Origin: an uncultured Erysipelotrichaceae bacterium
GTDB lineage: Bacteria; Bacillota_I; Bacilli_A; RF39; UBA660
Direction of reading: 5' to 3'
DNA length: 64,000 nucleotides
Assembly (NCBI GenBank): GCA_902767375.1
Contig: CACXGV010000001.1
Coordinates: forward strand, 1,080-65,079
Both the position numbers and the translations under genes were made by a program. Below the pieces are notes generated by a model that saw only the letters and a program-made list of their open reading frames with translations, was not told the DNA's origin and ran no database searches. Below are positions 10,457 to 63,873 of this stretch, piece after piece (the stretch's first letter is position 1; the number at the start of each line of letters is the position of its first letter).

Positions 10457-10881
10457 TCAGTTTTTTAATGTAAAATAACCTGGATTACTTGTTCCACCAT
10501 CTATATGGGCATATTCACGGTTTACGTGATGTGAATCATATGTGGTACCTGCTCCACCCACTAGTTTAGTATCATTATAAAACACATGATAGCTACCTGT
10601 TGGAGCAACAGTTGAACTTCCGGCAGCCTATGCTTCTAAAGATGTTAATACAAATTTATCTGAAACATAAATTGTTGTTAGATTACTACAATAATTAAAC
10701 ATATTAACCATACTAATAACTTTTGAAGTATCAAATGAACTTAAATCTAAACTCTTAACTTTACTACCAATAAACATAGCTGACATATCAGTTACATTAG
10801 TTGTATCTAAGCCTTCAATAGTAAGAGTAATACTAGTGCTATAACTGATACTAACATAGTATTTCTAGATTTCTTATCCAT
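10457..10881 (-). pseudogene. remnant of a TasA-like/BspA-LRR surface-protein paralog
   Basis: Hand translation starts MDKKSRNTMLVSVIALVLLLL, then changes frame straight into two DUF285/BspA-type repeats (LDTTNVTDMSAMF, FDTSKVISMVNMF) and a C-terminal ...GGAGTTYD...NPGYFTLKN. There is an in-frame TAG at 10628-10630. The N-domain is deleted. The family leader hairpin is retained. Confidence 0.75.
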
Positions 10882-16385: not shown

Positions 16386-18632
16386 TTAATCTTCAAAAAC
16401 AGGATAACCATTAACTGAATCTAATTTCCATGTTTTCAATGTATAATCTGCTAGTAAAGGGTCAATACTACTTAAATTAATACCACCTCTACTATTATTC
16501 AATAAATATGTTACCGACGTATTAGTTAAAGGATCACCAGCAAATAATGCAGCTGTTTTTGCTGTTGTTCCTGATTTATTAGAACCAGTAGGCCCAGATA
16601 AATAATATGAATTAGTCAAAGTATAAGATGGATTAGTAGCAAAATAAGCTATTCCATATTTTCCACCTGATCCAGTTATACTACCATAATTGTGAACATT
16701 ATTTATTACTGCTGTATTTATACCTTGAATTCTGCCTACTATTCCACTTGCATATCTACTACTTGTTGAGGCACTTATTGTTCCCGTATTATAAGAATTT
16801 AATACAATTATAACATTGTCATTTTGTGCTCCACCACCAACTATACCACCAGCACATTGCGTTTGTGCAGATTGGGTACCCATATTATAACTATTTAATA
16901 CTATAGATTTACCAGTATTATTAGAAGAACATCCAATTATACCTCCAGCATAATCATGCCCTGTAACAGCACCTGTATTATAAGCATCATCAATTATCGC
17001 AATCGAAGCTGAAGTATTCCAACCAAGTATTCCAGCAGAATGCAGCGTAGAAGTTATGGTGCCGGTATTTTTAGCATTTTTAATAGTAACAATACCACCT
17101 GTGCTATTACCATATATACCACCAGCCGATTGAGCAGTCGCAGATACATCTCCATTATTTGTTACATCTTCCATATCGACGTTGCATCCAAAGATACCTA
17201 ACACACCACCACTAGCATCACCTGAACCTGTAATATCCCCATTGTTAACAAACTTATTAATAGTTATACCTTTAATCCCATTACCAGCTGCTACCACACC
17301 AGCAGCTCGATTGCCTGAAACATTACCATTATTTTTACAATTATTAATTACTATATATGCATCATCATTCCAACCAGCTCCTATGAATCCTGCAGAACTT
17401 CCTCCTGTAATATTACCATTATTCTCACTATTATTTATTTCTACTGTGCCACCATTAATTGATCCCACAAAACCTCCAAGGCTACCACCATTACCGATAT
17501 TACCATTATTATTACAATTATTAATAGTCAATTTACCGCCATTAGCAGAGCCTACAAAACCACCCTCACTCCACTCAGAATTATCATTTATAACAGTAAC
17601 ATCAACAATGACATTTTCAATTAAAACATCACCCCTTACTTCTCCAATTAAACCTGCCGAATTACTTTTAGATAAATTTGAAGTTACATTACCAGTTAAA
17701 GTTAGATTATTAAAAATTGAGCCTTCACTAGAGCAAAATAATGCTACACACGAAGATTCATCAGTATTTATATATAGATTACTAAGAGTATGACCTAGCC
17801 CATTAAAACTACCTTTAAATACAGCATTAACCCCAATTGATTCGAAACCTTGGCCAGTGGTTAATTCCGTAATTAAAGCTTCTACTGAACCATTACCATT
17901 TATATCACCATAATCAGTTCTTGTTGAATCTTCATAACTATTAGCAGTTTGAAAATCTAAATCTCTCATTAGCATAAAATCATATTCTTCAAAATCATTT
18001 CCATCATTATTCATACTTTTTGAAAGTTCTAATAAATCTTCAATATTTTGAATAGCAATAAATTTTCTTGCTTTACCATTATCTTCAACACTTATATGAG
18101 CTGCATATAATGCTCTCATATCTACACTTTGATCTACTCCTGTATCTGGGAAATATATTTTTAAGATATATGTATGAACTAAATTATCCCCTGTTGTAAA
18201 ATATCCTGTACCAAGATTTACTGTCTCTGATAATGGTGTTTTATTTTCTACACTTGGTATTGTAAGTCCATTATTTGAATTATTAATTGCTTCTAGTGTA
18301 TATACCATTGGTGTTGTTACAAAGGTATTATTATCTACTACTATACTAATTTTATATGACATTGATAAAACTTCCGTATTATTTTTACCAGTTAAAGTTA
18401 TAGTTTTAGTTACCCACGGATTATCATTATCTGGTATTAGATTATTAGCTACTATATCTGGCCCACCATCGATGTCTATCCACATTTCTCCACCATCTAA
18501 GCTTATTACTGATGCATTTTCAAGGCCCGTTACCCTAGCACTGAAAGCTGCATAAGTGACTCCAAATGCCATCACTATTAAAAGGGCAAATAAGCCAATT
18601 ACAGCAACTGTTCTTCTTGAATTTTCTACCAT
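16386..18632 (-). CDS. surface protein: TasA/camelysin-like N-module with SipW-type signal peptide, plus GLUG-type Gly/Asn-rich repeats
   Basis: N-terminus ...GVTYAAFSARVTGLENASVISLDGGEMW...HTYILKIYFPDTGVDQ, shared with three other genes in the window. The C-terminal half carries many GG(F/I)(V/I)G / NNGN repeats. Confidence 0.65.
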   Translation of the reverse strand: MVENSRRTVAVIGLFALLIVMAFGVTYAAFSARVTGLENASVISLDGGEMWIDIDGGPDIVANNLIPDNDNPWVTKTITLTGKNNTEVLSMSYKISIVVDNNTFVTTPMVYTLEAINNSNNGLTIPSVENKTPLSETVNLGTGYFTTGDNLVHTYILKIYFPDTGVDQSVDMRALYAAHISVEDNGKARKFIAIQNIEDLLELSKSMNNDGNDFEEYDFMLMRDLDFQTANSYEDSTRTDYGDINGNGSVEALITELTTGQGFESIGVNAVFKGSFNGLGHTLSNLYINTDESSCVALFCSSEGSIFNNLTLTGNVTSNLSKSNSAGLIGEVRGDVLIENVIVDVTVINDNSEWSEGGFVGSANGGKLTINNCNNNGNIGNGGSLGGFVGSINGGTVEINNSENNGNITGGSSAGFIGAGWNDDAYIVINNCKNNGNVSGNRAAGVVAAGNGIKGITINKFVNNGDITGSGDASGGVLGIFGCNVDMEDVTNNGDVSATAQSAGGIYGNSTGGIVTIKNAKNTGTITSTLHSAGILGWNTSASIAIIDDAYNTGAVTGHDYAGGIIGCSSNNTGKSIVLNSYNMGTQSAQTQCAGGIVGGGAQNDNVIIVLNSYNTGTISASTSSRYASGIVGRIQGINTAVINNVHNYGSITGSGGKYGIAYFATNPSYTLTNSYYLSGPTGSNKSGTTAKTAALFAGDPLTNTSVTYLLNNSRGGINLSSIDPLLADYTLKTWKLDSVNGYPVFED
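16652..17732 (-). repeat. coding Gly/Asn-rich GLUG-type repeat array
   Basis: Reiterated NNGN(I/V)xGxxxxGG(F/I)(V/I)G units in the 748-aa protein. They also generate the spurious antisense ORF 17182-17793. Confidence 0.6.
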
Positions 18633-25073: not shown

Positions 25074-25096
25074 AAAAAAAAAGAGTTGTTACTCTT
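25074..25096 (-). terminator. intrinsic terminator after the stand-alone TasA-like gene
   Basis: AAGAGT / ACTCTT stem with loop TGTT, followed by a 9-nt U-run on the transcript. Confidence 0.5.
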
Positions 25097-25649
25097 TTCC
25101 ATCAGTTATATTTATTTTAGCTCTAATTTCCTTTTCCTGGTCAGTATTTTGATCAACCCCAGTATCAGGGAAATATATCTTTAATACATAATTATGAATA
25201 ACTCCATCAGCTTCCGTAAATTTACCAGAGCCAAGTAAAAGAGGCCCTAAAGTATTAGGAATAGGAGTTTGATTACTTACATTAACTACATCTTGATTTT
25301 CTGTTGGACTATAACCATTTAAAGTATAAGTTAAAGCGTTATTCGAAAAAGTATTACTCTCAACATTTAAATAAATATTATATTCCATATCAAGTTCAGT
25401 TGTATTGGTTCCTGTTAAAGCGAATCTCTTAGTAGCCCATTCTTCTTCTCTTGGATAAATATTCCTAACTTCTAAAAAATTATCTTCTGCATAAGAAATA
25501 ACCATTCTACCCGCACTTAAACTAATTGTTGAAGCATTTTCTATTCCAGTAATATTAGCTGTAAAGTATGCATAAGATACACTAACAACAGTTACAACTA
25601 AAACTATAACAGATAAAATTCCTATATATAATTTCTTTCGCTCAGTCAT
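25089..25649 (-). CDS. stand-alone TasA/camelysin-like module with SipW-type signal peptide
   Basis: MTERKKLYIGILSVIVLVVTVVSVSYAYFTANITGIENASTISLSAGRMV...HNYVLKIYFPDTGVDQ. This is the N-domain only, with no C-terminal cargo. ATG 25649 follows GGAGAGTGAT; the track start is a GTG. Confidence 0.65.
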   Translation of the reverse strand: MTERKKLYIGILSVIVLVVTVVSVSYAYFTANITGIENASTISLSAGRMVISYAEDNFLEVRNIYPREEEWATKRFALTGTNTTELDMEYNIYLNVESNTFSNNALTYTLNGYSPTENQDVVNVSNQTPIPNTLGPLLLGSGKFTEADGVIHNYVLKIYFPDTGVDQNTDQEKEIRAKINITDGKE

Positions 25650-36426: not shown

Positions 36427-36436
36427 TTATTCCTCC

Positions 36437-40721: not shown

Positions 40722-40738
40722 TTCATACATATTTTTAA

Positions 40739-41119
40739 TTATTGAATGCAGCCGTCGGCACCTTTAGTCCAAGGTCTTAAAATGCAAGCTTCACATACAT
40801 TGAAATCCATTGATTCTTCTAGACCGTTTCTTTCAGAACTATAATTACTTACAGCGCCGAAAATAAACATTACGATACTAGGAATAAAGAAAATAACAAT
40901 ACCTGCTATAGCTCTCCACATTAGACTCTTAACAGATTTTTTAATTTCATCGTCTTTAGCTGCAGTAACTGCCTTACCAAAATCAAAAATACCATAAACA
41001 ATAATTAATAATGGAATAGCAATTTTAAATACAGTTAATATCCAACCTACTAATTGAAGGATTCCTGAAGCTTCTGAACAAAAATTACTTACATCAATAC
41101 CATCTAATATAGTAAACAT
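40739..41119 (-). CDS. VirB2/TrbC-like small 2-TM protein (candidate pilin/major subunit)
   Basis: 126 aa with two TM helices flanking DFGKAVTAAKDDEIKKSVKS and a Cys-containing tail. It has its own consensus promoter and its own terminator. Confidence 0.5.
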   Translation of the reverse strand: MFTILDGIDVSNFCSEASGILQLVGWILTVFKIAIPLLIIVYGIFDFGKAVTAAKDDEIKKSVKSLMWRAIAGIVIFFIPSIVMFIFGAVSNYSSERNGLEESMDFNVCEACILRPWTKGADGCIQ

Positions 41120-41142
41120 AATCCCACTCCTTACATATATTC

Positions 41143-41171
41143 ATTTTATATTATTTCCGCGTCAAAGTCAA
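41143..41171 (-). promoter_or_regulatory. sigma-A-type promoter dedicated to the 126-aa VirB2-like gene
   Basis: The minus strand reads TTGACT, a 17-nt spacer, then TAAAAT, followed by SD AAGGAG. Confidence 0.55.
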
Positions 41172-41173
41172 CA

Positions 41174-42205
41174 TTATTTGAATAAACCAAATAAACCTCC
41201 ACCGCTCTTAAATTTATCAAAACCTAGTTTAATTAATAACTCATCAACGGCTTTATTTCTACTACTTCTTTCATCGATATTTCCTAAAATATGAAAAACT
41301 TTTAATTTAGTCTCATATTCAAAACTAGGTATATCAGTATCAATCAAAGAACACCTATTAAGTACAATTCTTGCATTATCTCCCATAATTCTAGAATAAT
41401 CCTGATTACTAGTTAATAGTTTAGTTAAACTAACTATCCCGGGCTCCACTAAAAATAATACAAAATCGCATAAATCATTTGCCTTAATAGTATTTAAATC
41501 AATAATCACCGCTTGTTTATCTTTAAATGATTTAATCTTAAATTTCAAATCATCATATGATGTACTTTCACAAATATCTGGATCTCTAAAATATAATGCA
41601 TCTTGGTTAATCATCTCAACCCCTACTGCACTATAATAATTTCTTAACTCTTTAACCATCATATACATCAAACTAGTAGCCCCCGCATGAGGAGTTAAAT
41701 CCTGAATTCCAATAATTATCTGATTAGGATTTTTAACAACTTTATTTTCATTTACATTAGTACTTTTACTAATATCTCCAAACGGATTAAAAGAACTACT
41801 AGTAGTATCTTCTGTTAATGGATTTTGAAAACTATTAACAATAATATACTTTTCTACATCTTTTAAAGTATTAGGATGCGTAGTTAAAAAATTAATACCT
41901 CCGACATTCTTAGTAAAATCATAATATCCATTTTGCACTAACTTAGAAATACATTCCTTAGTAGTATTATTATCTAAAAGTAAGATAACTTTTTCCTTTT
42001 CAAAATAACTTAAAAAATCAAAAAGTATATCAAAATCAGTATAATCTTTAATCGCCGTAATATCTATTATAACTTTACTATAATATAAATTTACTAATTG
42101 ATCATCTAAATCACCCTTGGTAAATTCACCATGTAAAGTTTTAATAACATTAACATCAATTCTATTTAAAAGAGCACTATTTAAATTTTCAATTAATAAA
42201 TTCAC
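41174..42205 (-). CDS. MinD/ParA-fold protein with degenerate P-loop and N-terminal receiver-like domain (TadZ/CpaE-like)
   Basis: IIIGIQDLTPHAGATSLMYMMVKEL sits where the deviant Walker A would be, but there is no Lys. Later FVLFLVEPG and RIVLNRC blocks are typical of the fold. GTG start. Confidence 0.35.
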   Translation of the reverse strand: MNLLIENLNSALLNRIDVNVIKTLHGEFTKGDLDDQLVNLYYSKVIIDITAIKDYTDFDILFDFLSYFEKEKVILLLDNNTTKECISKLVQNGYYDFTKNVGGINFLTTHPNTLKDVEKYIIVNSFQNPLTEDTTSSSFNPFGDISKSTNVNENKVVKNPNQIIIGIQDLTPHAGATSLMYMMVKELRNYYSAVGVEMINQDALYFRDPDICESTSYDDLKFKIKSFKDKQAVIIDLNTIKANDLCDFVLFLVEPGIVSLTKLLTSNQDYSRIMGDNARIVLNRCSLIDTDIPSFEYETKLKVFHILGNIDERSSRNKAVDELLIKLGFDKFKSGGGLFGLFK

Positions 42206-42219
42206 GCCATCATCTTCCT

Positions 42220-42654
42220 CTATAATTTGTCATTTGCAAAATACACTGCTTTACTCTCACCAGTAACAGGGAAAGTAAATAAACTACCAAATATTGGTAA
42301 ATCTAATTTAAAATAAACTGTAACATAATAATAAGTCTTTTTAAATGTTCCTTCACCTTTAGCTTTGGTAGAAACACAATATCTATACTTTTTTTGTCCA
42401 CCAACAAGTTCATCATAACCCTTGGCATCTTTACAGTTACCATAAACAAAATAACCATAACCGTCTAAATACTCACTAATTTCAGTTCTAGCTTTACTAT
42501 TCATACCTTCATTTTGTTCAATAATATTAATAATACCATTCTTAACTCTAAATGCTTTTGAATAGTTTACAGATACAGCTAAATAACCAGAAAAGAGCAC
42601 TATAAATACGATAACTATGGTAAATATCCACGCTCCACCAATTGCTTCTCTCAT
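42220..42654 (-). CDS. pseudopilin/TadE-like membrane-anchored protein
   Basis: MREAIGGAWIFTIVIVFIVLFSGYLAVSVNY: a short charged N-terminus, a Gly, and a ~20-aa hydrophobic helix. Confidence 0.3.
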   Translation of the reverse strand: MREAIGGAWIFTIVIVFIVLFSGYLAVSVNYSKAFRVKNGIINIIEQNEGMNSKARTEISEYLDGYGYFVYGNCKDAKGYDELVGGQKKYRYCVSTKAKGEGTFKKTYYYVTVYFKLDLPIFGSLFTFPVTGESKAVYFANDKL

Positions 42655-42666
42655 CTATAAGACTCC

Positions 42667-42915
42667 TTATTTATTATTTTGATTACATTGAACTGTGCCA
42701 GTTTTTGTACAAGCTTCATCTTCACAGTATTTGCAAGTACACATACCAGTACTAGCATTACAGTTATTACATTCGTAAGCTTGAGAACAATGAGTACTTC
42801 TTAGAATGTTTGCCTTAATTGATGGCCATACTAATGTTGTAAACACCACCCCTATAGCAGCAATTGCTACAACTGCAATAGCAGTCATACTTAATTCTCC
42901 AGATGCTTCTTTCAC
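42667..42915 (-). CDS. Flp-like small pilin candidate with Cys-rich C-terminal knot
   Basis: MKEASGELSMTAIAVVAIAAIGVVF resembles Flp leader/core sequences (ESG..TAI..). The C-terminal 40 aa hold 8 Cys. GTG start 9 nt after AGGAGG. First gene behind a consensus promoter. Confidence 0.35.
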   Translation of the reverse strand: MKEASGELSMTAIAVVAIAAIGVVFTTLVWPSIKANILRSTHCSQAYECNNCNASTGMCTCKYCEDEACTKTGTVQCNQNNK

Positions 42916-42950
42916 TTTTACATTCCTCCTATTCTTATAATCATAATATC

Positions 42951-42979
42951 ATTATACCTCATTAATTTCAATCTATCAA
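42951..42979 (-). promoter_or_regulatory. consensus sigma-A-type promoter of the Flp-like/TadE-like/TadZ-like operon
   Basis: The minus strand reads TTGATA, a 17-nt spacer, then TATAAT, followed by AGGAGG and the GTG start. Confidence 0.6.
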
Positions 42980-42990
42980 TTATCTTTTTA

Positions 42991-43015
42991 CAAAAAAATA
43001 GCACCAAAGTGCTAT
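42991..43015 (-). terminator. intrinsic terminator after the cadherin-like surface-protein gene
   Basis: ATAGCAC / GTGCTAT 7-bp stem with loop CAAA, and a 7-nt U-run on the transcript. Confidence 0.6.
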
Positions 43016-44607
43016 TCATAATCATAGTTTTTATCACTCTTTGCAGGTACTACTTTTCCTAATAATTTAAAGCCAAATACTGCTGCAATGCCTAAAACAA
43101 TTGCTCCGATAACATACAATATTACATTAGTTGATTTAATAATATTTATAGTATATATGTTTTCTTCCCCGTTTAAAGCTGTGACTTTTATTCTAACTGT
43201 TGATTTATTCTTAAGATGGGCATTTCCTAAAATAACATATTCAGCTTCTTCATTATCTAATTCAACCTCAATATTTAATTTATCATCACGATTCTTAAGT
43301 TTTAATTTATAATCATTTACATTAGGATTAAAATTAATTTTATATCCATCAATCTTAATACTTTTAATTAAATTATTTCCTTCTTCTTCCTCATTGATTC
43401 CAAACTTAATATTAATAACATAAAGTTTAGTACTTCCATCTTCAGCTGTAACTGTAACTGTAATTGGTTTGATATCTGAAATATCCTTATTATTAGCAAT
43501 TTCAACCTTAGCTTTTTCAGATTCAGCAGTAGCCGTTACAACAATATCTTTAGTACCTTTTGGTACTTCAATAGTATAAGTAGTAGTATCTTTATTAAAC
43601 TCTAACTTACCAATATCTACCTTTAATTCTTTTAAATAACTATTAGTATCTAAAACTGGTCCATTATACTTAATATTAATAGTATATGTTCTAGATGATC
43701 CACTTTCAGATGTAACAACAATTTTAATCGGATTTTCCTCATTAAAATTATCATTATTTAAAACAGATACTTTTGCTTTACTAGATTCAGCCTTAGCATT
43801 TACATCTATTTTAGTAACATCTCTATCAATATTAATAGTATATTCAGTAGTATTTTTATTAAATTCAATTGTTCCTTGAGACAAACTTAAACTACTTAAA
43901 TAATTATTAGTATCTTTACTTGGAGTAGATGAACCACCACTACTCTTAAATTTAACACTAATTAAATATGTTCTAGTAGAACCATTTTCTGCAATAACAG
44001 TTACAGAAATTGGAGTATTTTCACTAATATTTTTATTATTATTAATTGAAATAGTAGCTCTATTGGATTCAGCAGTTGCTGAAACAGTAACATTCTTAGT
44101 TCCTTTTGGTACCTCTATTTGATAAGCAATCGTATTCTTATTAAATCTAATAGATCCAGGAGATACCTTTAAACTCTTTAAATAATTATTAGTATCTAAA
44201 GTACTGGTTCCTCCACCACCACCCATATAAGTAGTACCATCTTTATTCTTATCGCAATCATACATAACAACTAAAGAGCAGTATTTAACATCTGTTCTAG
44301 GAGTACATGATCCGCTATACTGATCACAACCACTTCTAATTGTCTTAACATAATAATTCCTATTTCCATTAGAACATGAAACCATATCACTAGATATATA
44401 ATATTCTTGTTTCCATTCTCCTGTATAACAACTAGCTCTCTTACATTGTCCGATATATCCTTGACCAGAAGCATTAACTAAATTATCTTGAAAATTAATA
44501 CATCCATTATAACCAATATCATTTCCAACTGGTGTACTAGAATTAGCACCCCAAACAACAACAGGCCACATAAAAGCAAGGCCTAAAACTATCCATAATT
44601 TCTTCAT
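43012..44607 (-). CDS. surface protein: Cys-rich N-domain, four cadherin-like beta-sandwich repeats, C-terminal TM
   Basis: Repeats of the type NNYLKSLKVSPGSIRFNKNTIAYQIEVPKGTKNVTVSATAES...STRTYLISVKF. ATG 44607 follows AGAGGTG. Confidence 0.7.
   Translation of the reverse strand: MKKLWIVLGLAFMWPVVVWGANSSTPVGNDIGYNGCINFQDNLVNASGQGYIGQCKRASCYTGEWKQEYYISSDMVSCSNGNRNYYVKTIRSGCDQYSGSCTPRTDVKYCSLVVMYDCDKNKDGTTYMGGGGGTSTLDTNNYLKSLKVSPGSIRFNKNTIAYQIEVPKGTKNVTVSATAESNRATISINNNKNISENTPISVTVIAENGSTRTYLISVKFKSSGGSSTPSKDTNNYLSSLSLSQGTIEFNKNTTEYTINIDRDVTKIDVNAKAESSKAKVSVLNNDNFNEENPIKIVVTSESGSSRTYTINIKYNGPVLDTNSYLKELKVDIGKLEFNKDTTTYTIEVPKGTKDIVVTATAESEKAKVEIANNKDISDIKPITVTVTAEDGSTKLYVINIKFGINEEEEGNNLIKSIKIDGYKINFNPNVNDYKLKLKNRDDKLNIEVELDNEEAEYVILGNAHLKNKSTVRIKVTALNGEENIYTINIIKSTNVILYVIGAIVLGIAAVFGFKLLGKVVPAKSDKNYDYE
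43138..44199 (-). repeat. four cadherin-like beta-sandwich domain repeats (~83 aa each), coding
   Basis: Repeat boundaries at about residues 140-223, 236-317, 322-405 and 413-493 of the track ORF. Confidence 0.65.
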
Positions 44608-44624
44608 AAAAAACACCTCTAAGA

Positions 44625-47278: not shown

Positions 47279-49066
47279 CTACTTTACTGTAAATGTTAAA
47301 GTATTAGGAATAGAAGTATTCGGATTATTTCCATTGGAAAGTGTTCCTACATTATTAAATCTATCAGCATCAACCTGTGTCCTAGCATAACCAACCGTTG
47401 CTCCATTATTAGAAAACATTGATTCCATTGTAGTTACATTAGAAGTATCAAAGGAACTTAAATCTAGAACTGCTGCATCACACCATTCAAACATGTGCTC
47501 CATACTAGTTACATTCGATGTATCAAAATTGCTTACATCTATTGATGTAGCATAACTAAATGCAAACATCGAATACATATTGGTTACTTTTGATGTATCA
47601 AAATTGCTTACATCCAAAGATGAAGCAAGTGTATAAAAAAACATAGAACCCATAGTTGTTACATTTGAAGTATCAAAACTACTTACATCAATAGTTAAAG
47701 CCTCACTATAATAGAACATTGCTCCCATATCAGTTACATTTGAGGTGTTGAAATTACTTAAAACCAAACTTTCTGCTTTACTGCCGGAAAACATCCAACT
47801 CATGTTAGTTACTTTGGATGTATCAAAACTGCTTACATCCAAGCTCGTTGCCTCACAGTATTGAAGCATATATGACATATCAGTTACATTTGAAGTATCA
47901 AAGGAGCTTAAATCTAAACTGGTTGCCTTAGAACTTCTAAACATCCTCTGCATATCCGTTACATTAGATGTAGAAAAAGACCCAACCTCTATGCTGGTTG
48001 CTACACTATCTTGGAACATACCATTCATATTAGTTACATTTGATGTATCAAAGGAACTCAAATCCAGACTAGTAGCTGATGAACTCGAAAACATATATTG
48101 CATTGTAGTTACACTTGAAGTATCAAAACCACTTAAATCTAAAGATGTTGCAGATGTATTGAAAAACATACCCTTCATAGTCGTGACATTTGAAGTATCA
48201 AAACTACTTAAATCCACTGAAGTTGCTTTACTATGTGCAAACATATAAGACAACGCCAGAACAGGCTTATCATCTATATATGCACAAAACTCAGTTGCTA
48301 CTGGATCTGTTAATGTCTTATCTGTTAACATTACTCCCCATCCATTTTGTAATGGTGCTGAATTCCAAGTACTTATACCGCTACCATACATATTATACTT
48401 ATAAGTATATTGACCATCTACATAAGCTGTGCCATTTGCTGGAGTTGCTCCTTCAACATAATCATTAGTATAACAATGTTTACCATTATGATTTTGATTA
48501 GCAGTTGCTATTGTAGTTCCATACTCTCTTACATCTACTTTAGCATTAAATACTGCTTCTTGATTCATATTTTGATCTTTGCCATTATCTTTAAAATATA
48601 TCTTTAAGGTATATACATGGGTTTCTCCATCTGATTGTAAGAATATTCCTGTTCCGAATTTAAAGAATCCACTTGTTTTTGTTATTGATTTACCAGTAAT
48701 ATCTGCTATCTTTGTTCCATTTGTTCCTACTCCAGTTAAATCAAATGTTAATTGTCCTCCTTTAAAGGTATTTGATTCAATATTTAAACCTAGTTCATAT
48801 TTCATTTCTTGATTAGTCGTATTCCATCCTGTTAAAGTTATTTGTTTTGTTATCCAGGCTTCTTCCCTTGGATAGATATTACTTACACTTACAGTAGCAT
48901 CATCTTCTGAATACTCAATTCCCATTCTTCCTGCTGTTAAACTTATTGTACTAGCAGACTCTAAGCCAGTTATTCTTGCACTAAAGTAGGCATATGTTAC
49001 TCCGATTAAAACTAATGCAAGCGCTATAACCGATACTACACCCACATTTTTACTTTTTTTATCCAT
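47279..49066 (-). CDS. surface protein: TasA/camelysin-like N-module with SipW-type signal peptide, plus 11 BspA/DUF285-type leucine-rich repeats
   Basis: N-terminus ...IGVTYAYFSARITGLESASTISLTAGRMGI...HVYTLKIYFKDNGKDQ, followed by 11 copies of a 25-aa repeat (LDLSSFDTSNVTxMxxMF). Confidence 0.7.
   Translation of the reverse strand: MDKKSKNVGVVSVIALALVLIGVTYAYFSARITGLESASTISLTAGRMGIEYSEDDATVSVSNIYPREEAWITKQITLTGWNTTNQEMKYELGLNIESNTFKGGQLTFDLTGVGTNGTKIADITGKSITKTSGFFKFGTGIFLQSDGETHVYTLKIYFKDNGKDQNMNQEAVFNAKVDVREYGTTIATANQNHNGKHCYTNDYVEGATPANGTAYVDGQYTYKYNMYGSGISTWNSAPLQNGWGVMLTDKTLTDPVATEFCAYIDDKPVLALSYMFAHSKATSVDLSSFDTSNVTTMKGMFFNTSATSLDLSGFDTSSVTTMQYMFSSSSATSLDLSSFDTSNVTNMNGMFQDSVATSIEVGSFSTSNVTDMQRMFRSSKATSLDLSSFDTSNVTDMSYMLQYCEATSLDVSSFDTSKVTNMSWMFSGSKAESLVLSNFNTSNVTDMGAMFYYSEALTIDVSSFDTSNVTTMGSMFFYTLASSLDVSNFDTSKVTNMYSMFAFSYATSIDVSNFDTSNVTSMEHMFEWCDAAVLDLSSFDTSNVTTMESMFSNNGATVGYARTQVDADRFNNVGTLSNGNNPNTSIPNTLTFTVK
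47387..48259 (-). repeat. eleven 75-bp (25-aa) BspA/DUF285-type LRR repeats, coding
   Basis: F of the FDTSNVT motif recurs every 25 residues from residue 289 to residue 539. Confidence 0.85.
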
Positions 49067-49071
49067 AAGAA

Positions 49072-49094
49072 AATCACTACCCTCTATAGTGATT
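49072..49094 (-). promoter_or_regulatory. SD-sequestering leader hairpin of the 595-aa gene
   Basis: On the mRNA: AATCACTA-TAGAGGG-TAGTGATT (8 bp, or 9 counting a U-G pair), ending 5 nt before the ATG. Confidence 0.5.
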
Positions 49095-49832: not shown

Positions 49833-52184
49833 TTAATTAAAATCATAAAAATATTTCTTTCTATTAATAACTAGATATGTAGTTCCTATAATGGCAATAG
49901 CGCCTACAAAGTATAATAAATAATCAGTAATACCCGTACTTGGGTTTTGATTATTAGAATCTGTTGTAGATCCTGTATTATTATTTACTGGTGTAACACC
50001 ATTACCTTCTTCTACATTAATATCAATAACTTTTACTTTAAGAGTTCCTCTTATTCCACTACCATCTTTAGCAAGGGCATAAATAGTTACTTCTCCTTTT
50101 TTAAGGCCTGTAACTACTCCATTTTCATCTACCGTAGCAACTGAAGTATCTGAACTACTCCACATAACTTCTTTATTATCTGCATCAGCTGGAGATACTG
50201 TAGCAGTTAAATTTAATGTTCCTCTTACTGATACTTCATCTTTACCATTAATCGTAATTGCAGTTACTAAAACTGGTGCTGGACTACTTACTGTAATATT
50301 TTGGGTAGTAACTATATCTCTATAAACAAATCTAATAGTATAATTCCCAGCATTTACGCCTTCTTTTAACGTTACTTTATAACCTTCTTGAAATAATGTA
50401 ATATCAAAATTACCTGTTACATCATTACCTCTAGAATCTAACACAGTTACAGCTACATCAGATATATCATCAATATTACTTACTGTAAGTGGTACATAAT
50501 AATATTCTCCATCATCTTCGGTAGTTATTTTTTCAATACTAGCTTGAGGTGTACTAGAAGATAAATTATAACCAAGTGGTGTTGAGAATACATGCATAAT
50601 AGGTAAGAATTTAGCTTCACTATTAGTTGTTGTATCAATCCATTGAATACCATTTACACTATAATATGAAACAGAACCTGGAAGTGTTGCCATCGCATAC
50701 ATATTATCTGATTCAGAAGTAAAATCTTCATAAACATTTACTAAATATGCTGTATTAGAAGATCCAGGAAGGCCTTCAGAAGGTTCTAAATCATATGTAT
50801 TACCAGATGTATATTTCATATATACATAAATATTTGGACCACTTACAACATATGGATTATCTAAAGGAACTGTAACATATCCTTCATACTCTCCTTCATA
50901 AGTTGCAACAACAGTAGCTTTTCCAAAATCATCTTCACTACCAATATATAATTCTATTCTATCATCAGGTGATAAATATACATTAATTCTATCAATAATT
51001 TCTGCATCTGTATTTGCTCTTCTAAATATTTGTTTAAAATAAATTGTATTTCCTACTGGAATAACAATATTTGAATTAATTCCTAATGTATCATAATAAT
51101 ACGCTTTTTCTGGTACATTAGTTGAAACTTCATCAACTGACATATTAAACACACATGAGTAAACATCATAATAACTCATATAATGATATCCCTTGCCAAT
51201 TGTGTCATTACCAATAAAATCCGGATAAGTATTTTTAACAATCCATGCTCCATTAGCAGGTGCAGGTGTTGCAAAATTTTCTTTAGGATAATTATCATCC
51301 CATCCTACAATTGTAATAGCATGATTATACATTTCACCAGAAACACCATCATAATAACTATTTAAATAGTTAGTATCAAAACTTTCACTATACATTAATG
51401 ATGTTAAAGCGCCCCTTGTAACAATTAAATATTTCATTGTTTCAATATCATTTGGATCTCCGCACTCACCGCCAAAATGATATAACACATCTGCTACATT
51501 ATAATCTGCTTTTAAACCATAAGAATTAGAAATCTTTGGAGTATATTCACTAAATGGAACCTTAGATTCTAAAACTGGACCTCTACCTTGAGCTAGATAT
51601 GTTCCGCTCATAAAAGATGTTCCACCAGTATCTACTCCAGTTTCACTTGTTTCATGTCCCCTATAACCATAAGGATTTACCACCATTCCAGTTGGCATAG
51701 GTCTTCCATCAGATATACTTCTTGTTACACTAAAACCTAAATGTCTTTCTGATAAATCAAGTGCTTCCCCAGTAGAAAGTAAATAATTTGATTCAACTGC
51801 AGCCATAGTTGCAAAGCTCCAACATAAATTACTATCTACTATATTACCAGTCGCTATATCCATTGAAATAATTTGATTTTTAACTGGTGTAACATAATTT
51901 TCACCATCAACATTTCTTAAATCAAATGCACTTTTATCCCATGGATACCCAGTACTACCAGATCCTACATTTTTAACATTGAATTTATTACTAGTATCAA
52001 TAAATTCTTGACATCTTACTGGTTCTGGAGTTTTCTTTCTCAAAGCAGGTTTTAAAGCTGCCCACTTTTTATGCAAAACCGTCTCTGTACAAACCGTTCC
52101 ATCGTTTCCTACATACTCTAGAGCTAAAACATCTCTAGCGCCAAATAAAAACAATAGACTCAAAAATAAAAATACTTTCTTCAT
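49833..52184 (-). CDS. cell-wall-anchored papain-family (C1) cysteine peptidase with Big_2 domain
   Basis: Catalytic Cys in NLCWSFATMAAVE, His in YNHAITIVGWD, Asn in WIVKNTY. Ig-like Big_2 segment (LNLTATVSPADADNKEVMWSSSDTSVATVDENGVVTGLKKGE). C-terminal NPSTG, then a hydrophobic stretch and RKK. Confidence 0.8.
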   Translation of the reverse strand: MKKVFLFLSLLFLFGARDVLALEYVGNDGTVCTETVLHKKWAALKPALRKKTPEPVRCQEFIDTSNKFNVKNVGSGSTGYPWDKSAFDLRNVDGENYVTPVKNQIISMDIATGNIVDSNLCWSFATMAAVESNYLLSTGEALDLSERHLGFSVTRSISDGRPMPTGMVVNPYGYRGHETSETGVDTGGTSFMSGTYLAQGRGPVLESKVPFSEYTPKISNSYGLKADYNVADVLYHFGGECGDPNDIETMKYLIVTRGALTSLMYSESFDTNYLNSYYDGVSGEMYNHAITIVGWDDNYPKENFATPAPANGAWIVKNTYPDFIGNDTIGKGYHYMSYYDVYSCVFNMSVDEVSTNVPEKAYYYDTLGINSNIVIPVGNTIYFKQIFRRANTDAEIIDRINVYLSPDDRIELYIGSEDDFGKATVVATYEGEYEGYVTVPLDNPYVVSGPNIYVYMKYTSGNTYDLEPSEGLPGSSNTAYLVNVYEDFTSESDNMYAMATLPGSVSYYSVNGIQWIDTTTNSEAKFLPIMHVFSTPLGYNLSSSTPQASIEKITTEDDGEYYYVPLTVSNIDDISDVAVTVLDSRGNDVTGNFDITLFQEGYKVTLKEGVNAGNYTIRFVYRDIVTTQNITVSSPAPVLVTAITINGKDEVSVRGTLNLTATVSPADADNKEVMWSSSDTSVATVDENGVVTGLKKGEVTIYALAKDGSGIRGTLKVKVIDINVEEGNGVTPVNNNTGSTTDSNNQNPSTGITDYLLYFVGAIAIIGTTYLVINRKKYFYDFN

Positions 52185-52207
52185 TTTACCTCACCTATTC
52201 TAAAAAA

Positions 52208-52237
52208 ATAATATCAAAAATAGGCTTATAATGTCAA
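52208..52237 (-). promoter_or_regulatory. promoter of the C1 peptidase gene
   Basis: The minus strand reads TTGACA, an 18-nt spacer containing TG, then TATTAT (extended -10 TGATATTAT). Confidence 0.5.
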
Positions 52238-52287
52238 TAATTGATAAAATAAACACACCAAGAGTTTTTATTCATTGTCAAATAATA

Positions 52288-52320
52288 GTAAAAAAATAAT
52301 TTGCCTTAAAGCAAATTATT
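52288..52320 (-). terminator. intrinsic terminator after the adhesin gene
   Basis: AATAATTTGC / GCAAATTATT 10-bp stem with loop CTTAAA. The stop codon lies in the stem, and a U-run follows on the transcript. Confidence 0.65.
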
Positions 52321-54067
52321 TTTTATTGATAGTTTTAACTTTTTCTTTACCTTTTTTTCTATTTTTAGCAATTACTGTAATTCCAGCTGTTGTACCAGCA
52401 GCAGCTATAAGTAATAATAATCCATTTTCTAAATTAAATGTCTTATCTCCAGTATCTGGAATAACTCTTGCATTTGGATCAACTGTAGGTGTTGGTGAAA
52501 CAACTACTACGCTACCATCAGTATTTGAATAATCACCTTGTTCAATGTTTCCATCTCTTTCATCTACTACAGTTACAATAGTCTTAATACCATCTTCATA
52601 TGGATCATACCATTTAACACCTAAGAAGTTTTGATAAATCTCTTGATCTTCTTCACTTTTAGCTCTATAAATGTATAAATGCATATCAGCTGGATGTTTA
52701 TCTAAATCACTAACTAAATAACGGAATAAAGAAACATATTTTTCTGGGATTCTAATTCCATGTTGTGTATACCAGTGTTCAGCTAAAAGTCCAAGGCCAT
52801 CTCCATTACCTGGATCTACAACATATCCTTTAGGATCATTTTCATCATATCTATAATATTTTAAATATTTAATTTGATCATAAACAATATTACCATTTGC
52901 ATCTCTTACAATATTACCATTTGCATCATGTCTAGCTACTTCTGTAGCATCTTCAGCAGATGTATATGTTTTAAGAGCAAGTTCAGTAACTAATCTAATT
53001 TCAGTCTCAGTAAGTTCTGGGAATACATCAGATACAATAGTTCTATGATAAATAATATCTAATAATTTATTATATAATTCTGCATCAGAAATTGCTGGTT
53101 CAGCAAGTGGAGCATAATCTCTAATATTTTCATCAGTTAAGATTAAACCATTATAATAAATACGATCTGGTTCTCTTAATTCTCTATTAATACAATAAGC
53201 TTCTTGTTTTAATCCTTTACTTTCTAAATAATATAAAGCAACTCCTCTATTATGCCAGCATACAGCACGACTATCATCATGATCTACACCAGCAATAACA
53301 TCTTCTTCTTCAATAACTTCAGCTTTAACTGTAAACTGTTGATCTGGTGCTAAAATATATCCTTTTGGAGCATATTTTTCATGTAAAGTATAAGTACCTT
53401 CATGAAGTAATAACATATGATCAGATCCATCTGTAATCCATTCATCAATAACTTTTCCACATGGTCCAATAATTTGTAATATAGCACCAATTACAGGTTC
53501 ACCTTCATCATCAACTTTTTTAACAATTACAGGTACTTCAATTTCATCCTCTGGTTCTTCACAAGGATCAGTTGGTCCCGGTGTTGGAACTGGTGTTGGC
53601 TCTGGTCCAACTGGAGGATTTGTAGGTACTGGTGTTGGTTGTGGTGTTGGTTGTGGTGTTGGTGTAGGATCATCTTGTTCATGGAATTCTTCCTCATCAA
53701 TAATATCCTTATGAGGCATTTCATCACTTTCACCATCATCACCAAACGTAATAGTATCCCCTGAATCACTATTACTTGTATTTGACCTAGATGCTGGAGC
53801 AGCTGGTGCAGCTGGAGCTTGTACAACTGGTGCTTCTACAACAGGTTCACTAAAATCAATAGAAACTGTTTCATTTCCCCCATTACCATCACTAACTACA
53901 ATTGCAGTATCGCCTGGTTCATCTAATAATTCTCCAAATTGAATTTGGTCAACTATAACATCATCATCGGCATAAGCACGAGTTTGTAGGGAAAAACCTA
54001 CATGACTAGTCATTAAAAATGATAATGCATAAGATACAAATTTTATGGTTCCTCTTTTCATTCTCAT
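52316..54067 (-). CDS. cell-wall-anchored adhesin: Pro/Thr linker, SpaA/CnaB-type fold, thioester-domain-like region, IPDTG sorting signal
   Basis: Signal peptide and PTPTPQPTPQPTPVP linker. VKKVDDEGEPVIGAILQI...GTYTLHEKYAPKGY is prealbumin/CnaB-like. YCINRE motif. C-terminal IPDTG, then a hydrophobic stretch and NRKKGKEK. Confidence 0.6.
   Translation of the reverse strand: MRMKRGTIKFVSYALSFLMTSHVGFSLQTRAYADDDVIVDQIQFGELLDEPGDTAIVVSDGNGGNETVSIDFSEPVVEAPVVQAPAAPAAPASRSNTSNSDSGDTITFGDDGESDEMPHKDIIDEEEFHEQDDPTPTPQPTPQPTPVPTNPPVGPEPTPVPTPGPTDPCEEPEDEIEVPVIVKKVDDEGEPVIGAILQIIGPCGKVIDEWITDGSDHMLLLHEGTYTLHEKYAPKGYILAPDQQFTVKAEVIEEEDVIAGVDHDDSRAVCWHNRGVALYYLESKGLKQEAYCINRELREPDRIYYNGLILTDENIRDYAPLAEPAISDAELYNKLLDIIYHRTIVSDVFPELTETEIRLVTELALKTYTSAEDATEVARHDANGNIVRDANGNIVYDQIKYLKYYRYDENDPKGYVVDPGNGDGLGLLAEHWYTQHGIRIPEKYVSLFRYLVSDLDKHPADMHLYIYRAKSEEDQEIYQNFLGVKWYDPYEDGIKTIVTVVDERDGNIEQGDYSNTDGSVVVVSPTPTVDPNARVIPDTGDKTFNLENGLLLLIAAAGTTAGITVIAKNRKKGKEKVKTINKK
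53575..53670 (-). repeat. Pro/Thr-rich linker with 12-bp tandem units, locally GC-richer
   Basis: The plus strand reads ggtgttggttgt ggtgttggttgt ggtgttggtgt, encoding PTPQPTPQPTP. Confidence 0.7.
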
Positions 54068-54104
54068 ATAAATCACCTTTTAATTCCTTTCAAATTAGTT
54101 TCCT

Positions 54105-62229: not shown

Positions 62230-63873
62230 CTAATCAACAATAAATGGATTAGATTGGGTGCCTGTTCCACTAGATATACTTACCGCACTCTTTAGAGAAA
62301 CTGCGGGACGAACAGCACCATTGACGCCATCCACGTAGCCGCCGCCCAAAGTACCGACCCCGCCCACGCCCCACACGATAGCGTATCTGCCAACGAAAAC
62401 GTAAGGCGACAAAGACCAATAAAATTCTCCGCTTGCATTATTATATAAATAATATGAAGTATTACCATCGCTTTCGCCTTCTCGTAATTTATTATTACCA
62501 GCAAATGCTATTTCATCTGCGGTAAGAAGTCCTATTTTATACTCTTTATTGTTACTATATAATTTGGCATTTCCATTTACTGTATCTCTCGCTGTAAATT
62601 TTGATAACTTTCCATCACTTCCAGCATTTGGACATACTAAACTTGGGGCTGCTTCACTAGTTGGATTTAGTCTTCTGGCTGCTTGATAGTATGTTTTTGC
62701 GGTTCCTAAACCGGTGCCCGCTAGTGTTATACCCAATGGATCGTATGTTGTATCAGTTACTACTCCCTTATCATTACACCATATGACATCGGCAAGCATG
62801 TCGTTATAACTTCTTAATTTTTCATCATACCAATTTTTTAAGATTGTTAGTATTGTACTATCATTATCATTGGCATGGGCTATATTAAAATCACTTGAAT
62901 CAGGATTATTTGAATACATAAATCCTATATATGTATTTTTATTAATATTAGTATTAAATGCACTTTGATATGAATTGTTATACCTTGCAAATGCATTAGT
63001 TGTTCCATCTTCAGTGCTAACACATGGGTTTTGAACATTATTTGGATTATAATTATATAATACTAATTTAGTATTGCCCGCTCCATCTACTCTTACTATT
63101 CTCCAGCACATTCCTGCAAAGACTACATAATTGTTTTCTACTGCTCCTCTATAATAGTAGCTTGTTCCATAATCATCAGTAGTACTTCTTAGTCCTTCAT
63201 TAGTTGTAGCATAAGCTCTTCCTGGAATTGTCATTCCACTATCATTATCATTATGCACTGTTCCTCCTGTTGATTTTATACTAGCAAGAAGTGTTCCTGT
63301 TCCAGGATTATCCCATGGATCAGCAGTTGCTTCTTCTATATAGATTTTAGCATTAAATACTGCTTCTTGTGCATCATTTTGATCTAATCCATTATCTTTA
63401 AAATATATCTTTAATTCATAATTATGTGTATCATTCGTGGCATCGGTAAATGATCCTTTACCAAATTTTATCTTTCCTGTTCCATTTATTGATTGATTAG
63501 TTTTAGTTGCGATAGATGTTCCATTTGTACTACTTACTAATGTTAAATCATATGTTAAATAATTATTGGGAAAATTATTTGTTATTACATTTAGTCCTAA
63601 GTCATAATACATTGTTAAATCTGTTGTATTATTGGCTGTTAAAGTAAATGTTTTTGTTACCCATGGATCATTTTTAGGATAAATATTATTAAATGATACT
63701 TCTTCATTTCCCTCGGTATATACTATTCCCATTGTTCCGGCTGTTAAACTTATGGTACTTGCGCTTTCTATTCCAGTTATTCTTGCTGAGAAGTATGCAT
63801 ATGTTACGGTTATTAGTACTAGTGCTAATGCTACTATTGATAATATTATTGTATTTTTAGCTTTTTTATCCAT
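62230..63873 (-). CDS. surface protein: TasA/camelysin-like N-module with SipW-type signal peptide, plus an uncharacterised C-terminal domain
   Basis: N-terminus ...ITVTYAYFSARITGIESASTISLTAGTMGI...HNYELKIYFKDNGLDQ. The C-terminal domain contains GMCWRIVRV, LLTADEIAFAG, YWSLSPY and RPAVSLKS...GTQSNPFIV. Confidence 0.65.
   Translation of the reverse strand: MDKKAKNTIILSIVALALVLITVTYAYFSARITGIESASTISLTAGTMGIVYTEGNEEVSFNNIYPKNDPWVTKTFTLTANNTTDLTMYYDLGLNVITNNFPNNYLTYDLTLVSSTNGTSIATKTNQSINGTGKIKFGKGSFTDATNDTHNYELKIYFKDNGLDQNDAQEAVFNAKIYIEEATADPWDNPGTGTLLASIKSTGGTVHNDNDSGMTIPGRAYATTNEGLRSTTDDYGTSYYYRGAVENNYVVFAGMCWRIVRVDGAGNTKLVLYNYNPNNVQNPCVSTEDGTTNAFARYNNSYQSAFNTNINKNTYIGFMYSNNPDSSDFNIAHANDNDSTILTILKNWYDEKLRSYNDMLADVIWCNDKGVVTDTTYDPLGITLAGTGLGTAKTYYQAARRLNPTSEAAPSLVCPNAGSDGKLSKFTARDTVNGNAKLYSNNKEYKIGLLTADEIAFAGNNKLREGESDGNTSYYLYNNASGEFYWSLSPYVFVGRYAIVWGVGGVGTLGGGYVDGVNGAVRPAVSLKSAVSISSGTGTQSNPFIVD

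Follow-up and report, generated by a model that had tools for sequence, protein, structure and literature searches.

A divergent TasA-like N-terminal module joined to exchangeable C-terminal domains: candidate fibre-mounted adhesins of uncultured gut and rumen bacteria

Fibres of the TasA type are built from single-domain proteins: they are known as the scaffold of Bacillus biofilms and, since more recently, as archaeal pili and cannulae. All characterised members of the TasA superfamily polymerise by donor-strand complementation (PMC9674648, PMC9245690, PMC12518558), and in the TasA fibre the C terminus makes an inter-subunit contact (PMC9674648). The archaeal filaments of this superfamily are represented by several paralogues per genome, often encoded next to signal peptidase I (PMC9245690, PMC12518558).

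Here we analyze a 64-kb stretch of DNA from an uncultured bacterium (hereafter, the window) that encodes a protein, the target, in which a predicted signal peptide is followed by a TasA-like module, a linker and cap, 11 PARCEL/DUF285 repeats, and a C-terminal tail (Table 1). We propose, with a probability of about 0.5, that it is a surface protein combining a SipW-cognate-type signal peptide, a TasA-like β-sandwich of ~155 residues, and a PARCEL/DUF285 binding part, and that it enters a donor-strand fibre. A literature search found no description of fusions of TasA-family modules to C-terminal domains of the kinds reported below.

Table 1. Features of the target gene, its paralogues, and a gene remnant, in window coordinates
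Feature	Position	Strand	Basis
Target gene, 595 aa	47279..49066	minus	ORF
Predicted SipW-type signal peptide, residues 1-26	48989..49066	minus	TIGR04088 score and residue conservation
Residues 27-42 (YFSARITGLESASTIS): conserved stretch at the N terminus of the mature protein, candidate donor strand	48941..48988	minus	
β-Sandwich core of the TasA-like module, residues 43-181	48524..48940	minus	AF2, PF12389, hhalign
Linker and repeat-domain N-terminal cap, residues 182-267	48266..48523	minus	Paralogue homology stops at ~181
Eleven 25-residue PARCEL/DUF285 (BspA-like LRR) repeats, residues 268-554	47405..48265	minus	Pfam and TIGR02167
C-terminal tail, residues 555-595	47282..47404	minus	Read from translation
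Paralogue A, 748 aa: N-module (18075-18632, 37% identity to target) and Gly-rich repeat domain	16386..18632	minus	ORF, tblastn
Paralogue B, 186 aa from ATG: module alone	25089..25649	minus	ORF, tblastn
Paralogue D, 547 aa: N-module (63331-63873, 61% identity to target) and ~360-aa domain	62230..63873	minus	ORF, tblastn
Gene remnant	10457..10881	minus	RBS, ~20 signal-peptide codons, and DUF285 fragments

One module in four genes and in a wider family

The original prediction, that the window holds four intact genes with a common N-module of ~180 aa, agrees with the reading frames, all of which are located on the minus strand. In an alignment of the four proteins, the first ~183 residues of the paralogues are 37 to 61% identical to the target, with 47 invariant columns that include every motif listed for the module. 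Comparison of the window copies with tblastn yielded E values between 1e-27 and 1e-59, with homology ending at residue ~181; this likeness is far beyond chance. The core of the module terminates in the target with a HxYxLKIYFxDxGxDQN...F.AK motif.

Past the common module, the modular architecture is established by domains that change from gene to gene. The 11 BspA/DUF285 leucine-rich repeats foreseen in the target are recovered by both PF03382 (DUF285; 256.2 bits, cut-off 25) and TIGR02167 (257.1 bits, cut-off 30, 11 stretches), and a 75-bp periodicity runs across the DNA of this region; the repeats form a putative ligand-binding domain. The linker and cap ahead of them contain a GQYTYKY motif that is also present in two relatives, P0003 and P0011. 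The C-terminal domain of paralogue D has no Pfam match, and the same domain stands behind a family module in L007. Paralogue B, a candidate shaft subunit, consists of the module only; its longest ORF begins at a GTG at 25658 and encodes 189 aa, the recorded form being 186 aa. Two details of the original prediction were not confirmed. GLUG-type repeats, which had been assigned to paralogue A, are not matched by Pfam either in the full protein at E ≤ 1 or in the C-terminal 562 aa at E ≤ 0.01. The pseudogene that had been credited with an N-module has lost the β-sandwich part by deletion: what remains is a conserved RBS and ~20 signal-peptide codons, joined out of frame to fragments of DUF285 repeats and tail. 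Gly-rich repeats can be seen by eye in the C-terminal part of paralogue A.

C-terminally, the four window proteins lack the combination of LPXTG, hydrophobic stretch, and charged tail, and they have neither a TM helix there nor another anchor; in the translated tail of the target, neither an LPXTG motif nor a hydrophobic anchor is found. The neighbouring gene 52316-54076, in contrast to the four family members, ends in IPDTG followed by hydrophobic residues and a basic tail.

The genomic setting of paralogue B brings in a first alternative, namely, that the family, or at least this copy, serves mating-pair adhesion together with the neighbouring type IV secretion cluster rather than biofilm fibres. 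Immediately upstream of paralogue B, and in the same orientation, is a gene for a VirD4-type coupling protein; paralogue B ends a cluster that includes genes for a VirB4-like ATPase, a TrbL-like protein, and M23/lysozyme and NlpC/P60 proteins. The three other copies, however, are scattered among housekeeping genes (fmt, dnaB/dnaI, and sufB), and in relatives, family genes adjoin sipW. We therefore consider a role in conjugation very improbable; moreover, such a role would concern the context of the family rather than its mechanism, and fibres could still form.

The fusion of the module to other domains extends well beyond the window. A family profile matched 3,745 representatives of clusters at 50% identity, and in each of the 150 best-scoring of these (149 to 862 aa long) the module is N-terminal. 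Most members carry large C-terminal domains, and the cargo domains encountered in the family include DUF285, LRR_5, Flg_new, RCC1, DUF6273, and CARDB. Among the GTDB representatives scanned, which do not include the species of the window, the closest N-module is 64% identical. The family points to a gap in annotation: the four window proteins are unnamed in NCBI and ENA, where assemblies contain a sequence identical to the target, and among 89 long relatives Pfam recognises the module in just 7.

Kinship to TasA and predicted fold

The isolated module of the target matches PF12389 (Peptidase_M73) with a marginal score of 24.8 bits (gathering cut-off 22.5, E 2.3e-5), best over residues 6-69, and 7 of 11 family members match this profile. 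Full-length window proteins stay under the cut-off, with 20.3 bits for paralogue B and no listed match for the target. A short protein encoded in a relative (L067:10689-11318) provides a bridge: it scores 34.3 bits against PF12389 over profile positions 8-181 of 196, the representative of its cluster carries the NCBI name "TasA family protein," and hhalign aligns the window family to its profile, one of the SipW-adjacent TasA-family paralogues, over the full length with a probability of 100% (E 1e-44). The marginal PF12389 match and the alignment to PF12389-matching short proteins together uphold the kinship to TasA/camelysin that had been suggested from motifs and establish the homology; by these profile comparisons, the N-module belongs to the TasA/camelysin (PF12389) superfamily as a divergent member.

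Direct comparison with Bacillus sequences conveys the extent of this divergence. The window-family profile aligns with Bacillus TasA at E 5.7e-5 over residues 1-79, and in a greedy extension the AG.M.I, NIYP, and IYFKD..DQN motifs are collinear. When the mature module, lacking its signal peptide, was compared by hhalign with an alignment of 117 Bacillus TasA/CalY sequences, the probability was 6% in local mode and nothing was returned in global mode, and hmmsearch with three family profiles (A2, A3, and A6) against all PDB chain sequences retrieved no TasA and no meaningful match. As for protease activity, implied by the name camelysin, the module sequences lack HEXXH, and the nearly invariant His150 is isolated, in a predicted strand; the metalloprotease reading was rejected.

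The AF2 model of the module is a 10-strand β-sandwich (pLDDT 87, pTM 0.81), with pLDDT of 85-97 across most of the core. Two models, one including the signal peptide and one lacking it (pLDDT 80 and 87, respectively), were compared with the PDB using Foldseek. The top matches were PA14, carbohydrate-binding modules (CBM4-2, CBM16, and CBM22), GOLD, and viral jelly-roll domains, all weak and generic (TM 0.26-0.40, E >1e-3). The TasA-like pilin AbpA (7UEG), a weak match at rank 22 (TM 0.35, E 0.014), is the only filament subunit within the top 50, among which TasA (5OF1/8AUR) does not appear.

These matches are what might be expected if the module were a cleaved, nonpolymerising β-sandwich that binds carbohydrate or the cell wall and holds its cargo there in the manner of SLH, CWB2, or LysM, or if the proteins were just secreted. 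The predicted fold seems complete without an N-terminal strand, and a constant N-module with exchangeable cargo is the usual layout of wall-anchored proteins. The structural matches are, however, weak and generic, the sequence homology points to a superfamily of which all characterised members form donor-strand filaments (PMC12518558), and sugar binding would leave unexplained the extreme conservation of a stretch that the models leave unstructured. This stretch, residues 27-42, has a pLDDT <50 in the AF2 monomer models and is among the most conserved parts of the module (F28 in 154, E36 in 155, and T40 in 142 of 157 family members). It aligns in hhalign with the region of residues 28-38 of TasA and, by analogy with the TasA fibre (PMC9674648), is a candidate donor strand. 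On balance, wall binding or simple secretion appears unlikely, and we retain the proposal that the module assembles into donor-strand fibres.

Signal peptide and SipW-like peptidases

The signal peptide of the target comprises MDKKSKN, a hydrophobic core of 16 residues, and G-V-T-Y-A, with the cut predicted after Ala26. Its assignment to the SipW type, part of the original prediction, is borne out in one respect and not in another. The cleavage box (Gly at -5, Ser/Thr at -3, and Ala at -1, followed by YF(S/T)A) is strongly conserved among 157 family members, with Ala at -1 in 151, Ser, Thr, or Ala at -3 in all 157, and Gly at -5 in 126, but the TIGR04088 cut-off of 19 is missed by 0.1 bits in the target (18.9) and more widely in paralogue D (14.5), the two other paralogues having no match. 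The motif layout differs from that of a type IV pilin with a class III signal peptide: there is no conserved Gly ahead of the hydrophobic stretch, the conserved box is located after the helix, and an invariant Glu lies ~10 residues past the predicted cleavage site. That reading was rejected because of this layout.

The link to a dedicated peptidase comes from relatives. Archaeal-type (SipW-like) peptidases that pass TIGR02228 and retain the conserved Ser, His, and Asp are encoded within 10 kb of short paralogues in 11 of 35 related assemblies and directly downstream of one to four tandem short paralogues in 9 of the 35, which establishes the synteny with SipW in relatives. The peptidase-adjacent short paralogues and the window genes have a common G-x-T-F/Y-A-Y-F-T/S-A box. 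A search by regular expression and HMM of the window and of ~10 kb of flanking sequence at each end, taken from contigs with identical copies of the window edge genes, found no SipW-like peptidase.

The result of this last search would fit an uncleaved signal anchor, that is, a helix retained in the membrane as an anchor of type II, with the module as a stalk holding DUF285 at the surface and no fibre being formed. Consistent with such an arrangement, AF2 predicts an unbroken helix over residues 3-24, the window proteins have no other anchor, and the DUF285/PARCEL proteins of Mollicutes are tethered to the membrane N-terminally (match to the NF045896 lipoprotein family). Nevertheless, the hydrophobic core is short (~15-16 residues) and variable, whereas the G-x-(S/T)-(Y/F)-A box keeps the -3/-1 rule almost throughout the family and recurs in the SipW-adjacent paralogues; the equivalent box is cleaved in TasA (PMC9674648, PMC9245690); and tandem module-only paralogues beside a dedicated peptidase make poor sense as stalks. 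A permanent anchor thus seems improbable, and we continue with the fibre proposal, which includes cleavage.

Proposed assembly and comparison with known systems

Under the fibre proposal, the target would be exported via Sec and cut behind Ala26 by a signal peptidase of the SipW type whose gene would lie in another part of the genome. The freed N-terminal strand (YFSARITGLESAS...) would then enter the β-sheet of a neighbouring TasA-like module, as in the TasA, AbpA, and cannula filaments, so that the target would join, or itself form, a sortase-independent fibre. The shaft would probably consist mostly of module-only paralogues such as paralogue B, with the C-terminal adhesin domain exposed on the fibre, and the sister genes would attach other cargo domains to the same polymerisation module. 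Given that the C terminus of TasA makes an inter-subunit contact, a bulky C-terminal domain might be poorly tolerated in a TasA-type fibre. We infer cleavage, strand exchange, fibre formation, and adhesion from these relationships and regard the display of adhesins on fibres as a plausible model. That four genes share one module but differ in cargo suggests that uncultured bacteria of the gut and rumen possess a family of adhesins mounted on such fibres.

If the module does polymerise, poorly known, uncultured Bacilli of animal guts would be employing this mode of assembly to attach adhesins to fibres, across ~3,700 clusters at 50% identity; polymerisation would also account for the retention of DUF285/LRR surface proteins that have neither sortase motifs nor lipoboxes, and the module would provide a scaffold, modular by nature, for the display of protein domains on self-assembling fibres. 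More tentatively, and with less than even confidence, the family can be viewed as a large, so far unannotated lineage within the TasA superfamily, from uncultured Bacilli of the gut and rumen, that uses a donor-strand module as a universal N-terminal "plug" for PARCEL/DUF285, BspA LRR, RCC1, Listeria-Bacteroides repeats, and unknown folds. The resulting fibres would be sortase independent and chaperone free, polyvalent or mosaics of adhesins, a Gram-positive-type counterpart of chaperone-usher polyadhesins, and paralogue turnover through duplication, cargo swapping, and decay would generate surface variation.

The closest described system is SipW-processed TasA/CalY of Bacillus. Common to both are a signal peptide of the SipW type whose T-(W/F/Y)-A cleavage box precedes (A/F/Y)-F-(N/S/T), collinear AG.L/M.I/L, N-I/L-x-P, and I.FKD...QN..Q motifs, and a β-rich domain with a core of similar size, and relatives of the window family have tandem paralogues beside an archaeal-type signal peptidase. 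The differences are equally clear: the window family is very divergent, with the Bacillus TasA profile aligning to the first ~80 residues only, and its module has no specific Foldseek match; TasA has 234 aa compared with ~155 aa for the mature window module, in which no helical insertions are predicted; most window-family members carry large C-terminal domains; and their genes are dispersed rather than arranged in one operon. AbpA, AbpX, and the CanA/CanX cannulae are related to the window module remotely, at the level of PF12389. Their subunits are jelly-roll/β-sandwich domains with an N-terminal donor strand, for which the window module has a candidate; they are single-domain proteins, whereas window-family proteins are mostly fusions, and in archaeal pili, the proposed adhesin role falls to a separate TapA-like protein, AbpB, instead of a fused domain.

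On the side of the cargo, the 25-residue repeats of the target are of the same type as those of the PARCEL/DUF285 proteins of Mollicutes and Listeria (TIGR02167, NF045896), with scores of 256-257 bits, but the Mycoplasma members are lipoproteins, and the target has a SipW-type signal peptide and a TasA-like module in place of the lipobox. If the proposal is right, the target would resemble FimH of the chaperone-usher systems, a lectin joined to a pilin domain, in fusing a polymerisation domain to a binding domain, a likeness for which no homology is claimed. The order is reversed, with the polymerisation module at the N terminus, neither chaperone nor usher is involved, and the host is of the Gram-positive type.

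A conserved N-terminal module with changing C-terminal domains

Nearly all genes of the window, which has a low G+C content (24-33%), are carried on the minus strand. As originally predicted, four intact genes, namely the target (47279-49066) and paralogues A, B and D, encode a common N-terminal module: all claimed motifs were found in their alignment, which has 47 invariant columns, and the modules of the paralogues are 37-61% identical to that of the target across the first ~183 residues. In tblastn comparisons (E = 1e-27 to 1e-59), similarity ends sharply at residue ~181, and the family HMM, run against every window ORF of 60 aa or more, retrieved exactly these four. The longest ORF of paralogue B starts from GTG 25658; public collections contain the 186-aa form. 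LPXTG motifs, lipoboxes and C-terminal transmembrane (TM) segments are absent from all four proteins.

The eleven BspA/DUF285 repeats proposed for the target were recovered in its C-terminal half (DUF285, 256 bits) as 25-residue PARCEL repeats in step with a 75-bp periodicity of the DNA, and the GLUG-type repeats ascribed to paralogue A had no Pfam support. In paralogue D, the C-terminal ~360 aa (residues ~185-547; motif DDYGTSYYYRGAVENNY.VFAGMCWRIVRVDG) form a domain that Pfam does not recognise; it is conserved behind a family module in the related metagenome-assembled genome (MAG) RUG12877 (L007 4935-6194). DUF6273 is matched by two other family members. The target and paralogue D have modules with 61% identity and a near-identical 5' region, yet unrelated cargo domains. 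The presumed pseudogene at 10457-10881 shares with both the ribosome-binding region and ~20 signal-peptide codons, here fused in a different frame to pieces of the DUF285 repeats and tail; of the beta-sandwich module nothing remains. Since the ~20 nt preceding the start codon are near-identical in these three copies, the duplications took in the translation-initiation region. The combination of like modules with unlike cargo, together with the decayed copy, indicates a history of duplication, cargo exchange and loss.

Features of the window and of the RUG12877 SipW operon (L007)
Feature	Position	Strand	Details
Target	47279-49066	minus	ORF, 595 aa
Paralogue A	16386-18632	minus	ORF, 748 aa
Paralogue B	25089-25649	minus	ORF, 186 aa from ATG
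Paralogue D	62230-63873	minus	ORF, 547 aa
Near-identical ~20 nt 5' of start codon	10882-10900, 49067-49085, 63874-63892		AGAAGGTAGTGATTTTTTTATG; decayed copy, target, paralogue D
VirD4-type coupling protein	25727-28042	minus	T4SS-DNA_transf, 180 bits
M23 peptidase with phage lysozyme	31708-33759	minus
VirB4-like ATPase	33779-35569	minus	conjugation cluster
Weak T4SS_pilin match	40739-41119	minus
TrbL-like membrane protein	within 25727-44616	minus	959 aa
NlpC/P60 protein	within 25727-44616	minus
Degenerate peptidase-like gene	L007 10237-10824		SipW HMM, E = 9e-10
SipW-like peptidase	L007 11403-12296
Protein with classic camelysin-type signal	L007 10237-13816 operon		184 aa; GNTLALFETNGG
Two more small secreted proteins	L007 10237-13816 operon

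An exhaustive profile search returned 3,745 representatives (50% identity) at E<=1e-3, including 248 at E<=1e-30. The module is N-terminal in all 150 best-scoring representatives (149-862 aa), and 22 of 146 among those listed are of module-only size. DUF285 is the cargo in 24 of the 89 long representatives; others carry LRR_5 (BspA), Flg_new, RCC1, DUF6273, CARDB or similar domains, and in many of the 89 Pfam recognises nothing in the cargo. Many copies occur in single MAGs, RUG12877, for instance, having matches at 13 sites in ten loci, a number of which are partial or frameshifted. The records are usually labelled Bacilli, Erysipelotrichaceae, Mollicutes, Tenericutes or Firmicutes, with one Clostridium sp.; several, titled 'uncultured Muribaculaceae' or 'Phocaeicola vulgatus' (L009, L010, L012, L015, L017 and others), are probably mislabelled or contaminated bins.

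The target is surrounded by further surface-protein genes (49833-54076, 43012-44616), encoding proteins of 783, 534 and 586 aa. The first has faint matches to Peptidase_C1 and Lectin_like, a Big_2 domain and a C-terminal TM segment, and the second has cadherin-like repeats. The third carries a SpaA domain and finishes with IPDTG, followed by a hydrophobic stretch and a basic tail; since this end is of the sortase type, the organism probably also uses sortase anchoring. At 12254-14769, the products of three consecutive genes (360, 177 and 290 aa) all have a CPxCG...C.YCG zinc-ribbon-like motif at their end, and one of them has a Ser-rich SSSWDSSSSWD repeat past its signal or TM segment. A Gram-positive-type conjugation/type IV secretion cluster occupies 25727-44616 on the minus strand, with no relaxase or integrase recognised in it. 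The module-only paralogue B lies directly downstream of its VirD4-type gene, an adjacency that hints at a conjugation-linked role for this copy; we consider such a role highly improbable.

Relationship of the module to the TasA superfamily

Direct comparisons with curated models give marginal yet concordant results in line with the proposed TasA/camelysin kinship. The isolated target module matches PF12389 (Peptidase_M73; 24.8 bits, cut-off 22.5, E = 2.3e-5), as do 7 of 11 family members, with the full-length window proteins remaining under threshold; in the search with the SipW-cognate signal-peptide model TIGR04088, the target scored 18.9 bits, just under the cut-off of 19. The family profile (157 sequences) aligns with a Bacillus TasA/CalY profile (117 sequences) over residues 1-79 (E = 5.7e-5, probability 66%), the probability falling to 6% once the signal peptide is removed; under greedy extension, the AG.M.I, NIYP and IYFKD..DQN motifs still align collinearly with those of TasA. 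The decisive evidence is a transitive match through short (~190-220 aa) paralogues from related uncultured Bacilli MAGs. One of these, from Coprobacillus sp. CAG:605 (L067:10689-11318), matches PF12389 with 34.3 bits, covering positions 8-181 of the 196 in the profile, and the representative of its 90% cluster is listed by NCBI as 'TasA family protein'. The short-paralogue profile matches the window-family profile over its full length (probability 100%, E = 1e-44). Thus, judging from these profile matches, we place the module, as a divergent member, in the TasA superfamily delineated in PMC9245690 and PMC12518558.

AlphaFold2 models of the full module (11 sequences, pLDDT 80) and the mature module (48 sequences, pLDDT 87, pTM 0.81) both present a 10-strand beta-sandwich, a predicted fold class compatible with that of TasA. 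Foldseek against the PDB gave weak generic matches (TM 0.26-0.40) to PA14, CBM, GOLD, viral jelly rolls and tailspike C-domains; the TasA-like pilin AbpA (7UEG) ranked 22nd (E = 0.014, TM 0.35), and TasA was not among the top 50. The top matches hint weakly at a cleaved, monomeric module that anchors the protein by binding wall or carbohydrate, which we deem unlikely. The stretch just past the predicted cleavage site is suggestive: residues ~25-36 are unstructured in both models (pLDDT <50), and the two strands that follow have intermediate confidence, yet few regions of the module are as highly conserved (F28 in 154, E36 in 155, T40 in 142 and G46 in 157 of 157 members). Its equivalent in TasA, residues 28-38, is the donor strand, with residues 39-61 rearranging as the fibre forms (PMC9674648).

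Signal peptides and SipW-type peptidases

Among 157 family members, a variable hydrophobic core of ~15 residues is followed by a box with Ala at -1 (151/157), Ser/Thr/Ala at -3 (157/157) and Gly at -5 (126/157), mirroring GGGTWA|AFND of TasA. Such an arrangement is that of cleaved type I signal peptides, and cleavage is predicted on that basis; that the helix instead persists as an uncleaved signal anchor, with the module serving as a stalk, seems doubtful.

No signal peptidase was found in the window or within ~10 kb past either end on contigs with identical copies of the edge genes; the scanned GTDB representatives do not include the window species (best identity 64%). In relatives, the association of the family with SipW is clear: by our count, 11 of 35 family-holding assemblies encode an archaeal-type signal peptidase no more than 10 kb from a family gene, and in 9 of the 11 the peptidase gene comes immediately downstream of module-only paralogues, one to four in tandem. 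All four peptidases scanned passed TIGR02228 and also matched the Bacillus SipW model, with scores short of its equivalog cut-off; the SxSM.P, THR and KGD motifs retain their Ser, His and Asp without exception. The G-x-T-(F/Y)-A-(Y/W)-F-(T/S)-A box is the same in the SipW-adjacent paralogues and the window genes.

L067 (12307-13713) and L063 (12783-14219) encode, between the tandem TasA-like genes and sipW, a 469-479-aa protein with an N-terminal TM segment and an Asp-rich region of ~300 residues, whose DxDGDGK(P/C)D(L/F)N repeats have a calcium-binding look; its C-terminal half matches just the rear portion of the module (HMM positions ~50-182). Like TapA, this protein could serve as an anchor or nucleator. 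One of the closest relatives, RUG12877, has a separate SipW operon (L007 10237-13816) that includes a protein with a camelysin-type signal, and so may have two kinds of SipW substrates.

Proposed assembly and comparison with known systems

We propose that the target is exported by Sec and would be cut after Ala26 by a SipW-type peptidase, whereupon its conserved N-terminal strand would enter a neighbouring TasA-like module. The protein would thereby join, or itself form, a fibre, with a shaft probably made of module-only paralogues, displaying the DUF285 domain as a putative adhesin. As the best-supported explanation, this model as a whole is assigned a probability of about 0.5. The homology, the signal-peptide box, the synteny in relatives and the modular build are shown by the analysis, whereas cleavage, strand exchange, fibre assembly and binding are inferences.

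The closest systems for the module are TasA/CalY with SipW and the archaeal TasA-superfamily filaments AbpA, AbpX and CanA/CanX; for the target C-terminus, they are the PARCEL/DUF285 surface proteins. Our full-text literature search found no account of adhesin domains joined to a TasA-family module. The characterised superfamily members treated in PMC9674648, PMC9245690 and PMC12518558 are single-domain subunits, an adhesin role being suggested for a separate TapA/AbpB-type protein (PMC9245690). Should polymerisation be confirmed, TasA-type assembly would reach to modular adhesin display in an uncultured lineage. The superfamily, its peptidase partner and the cargo domain are all known, and the principle is not new; what is new is their combination on a large scale.
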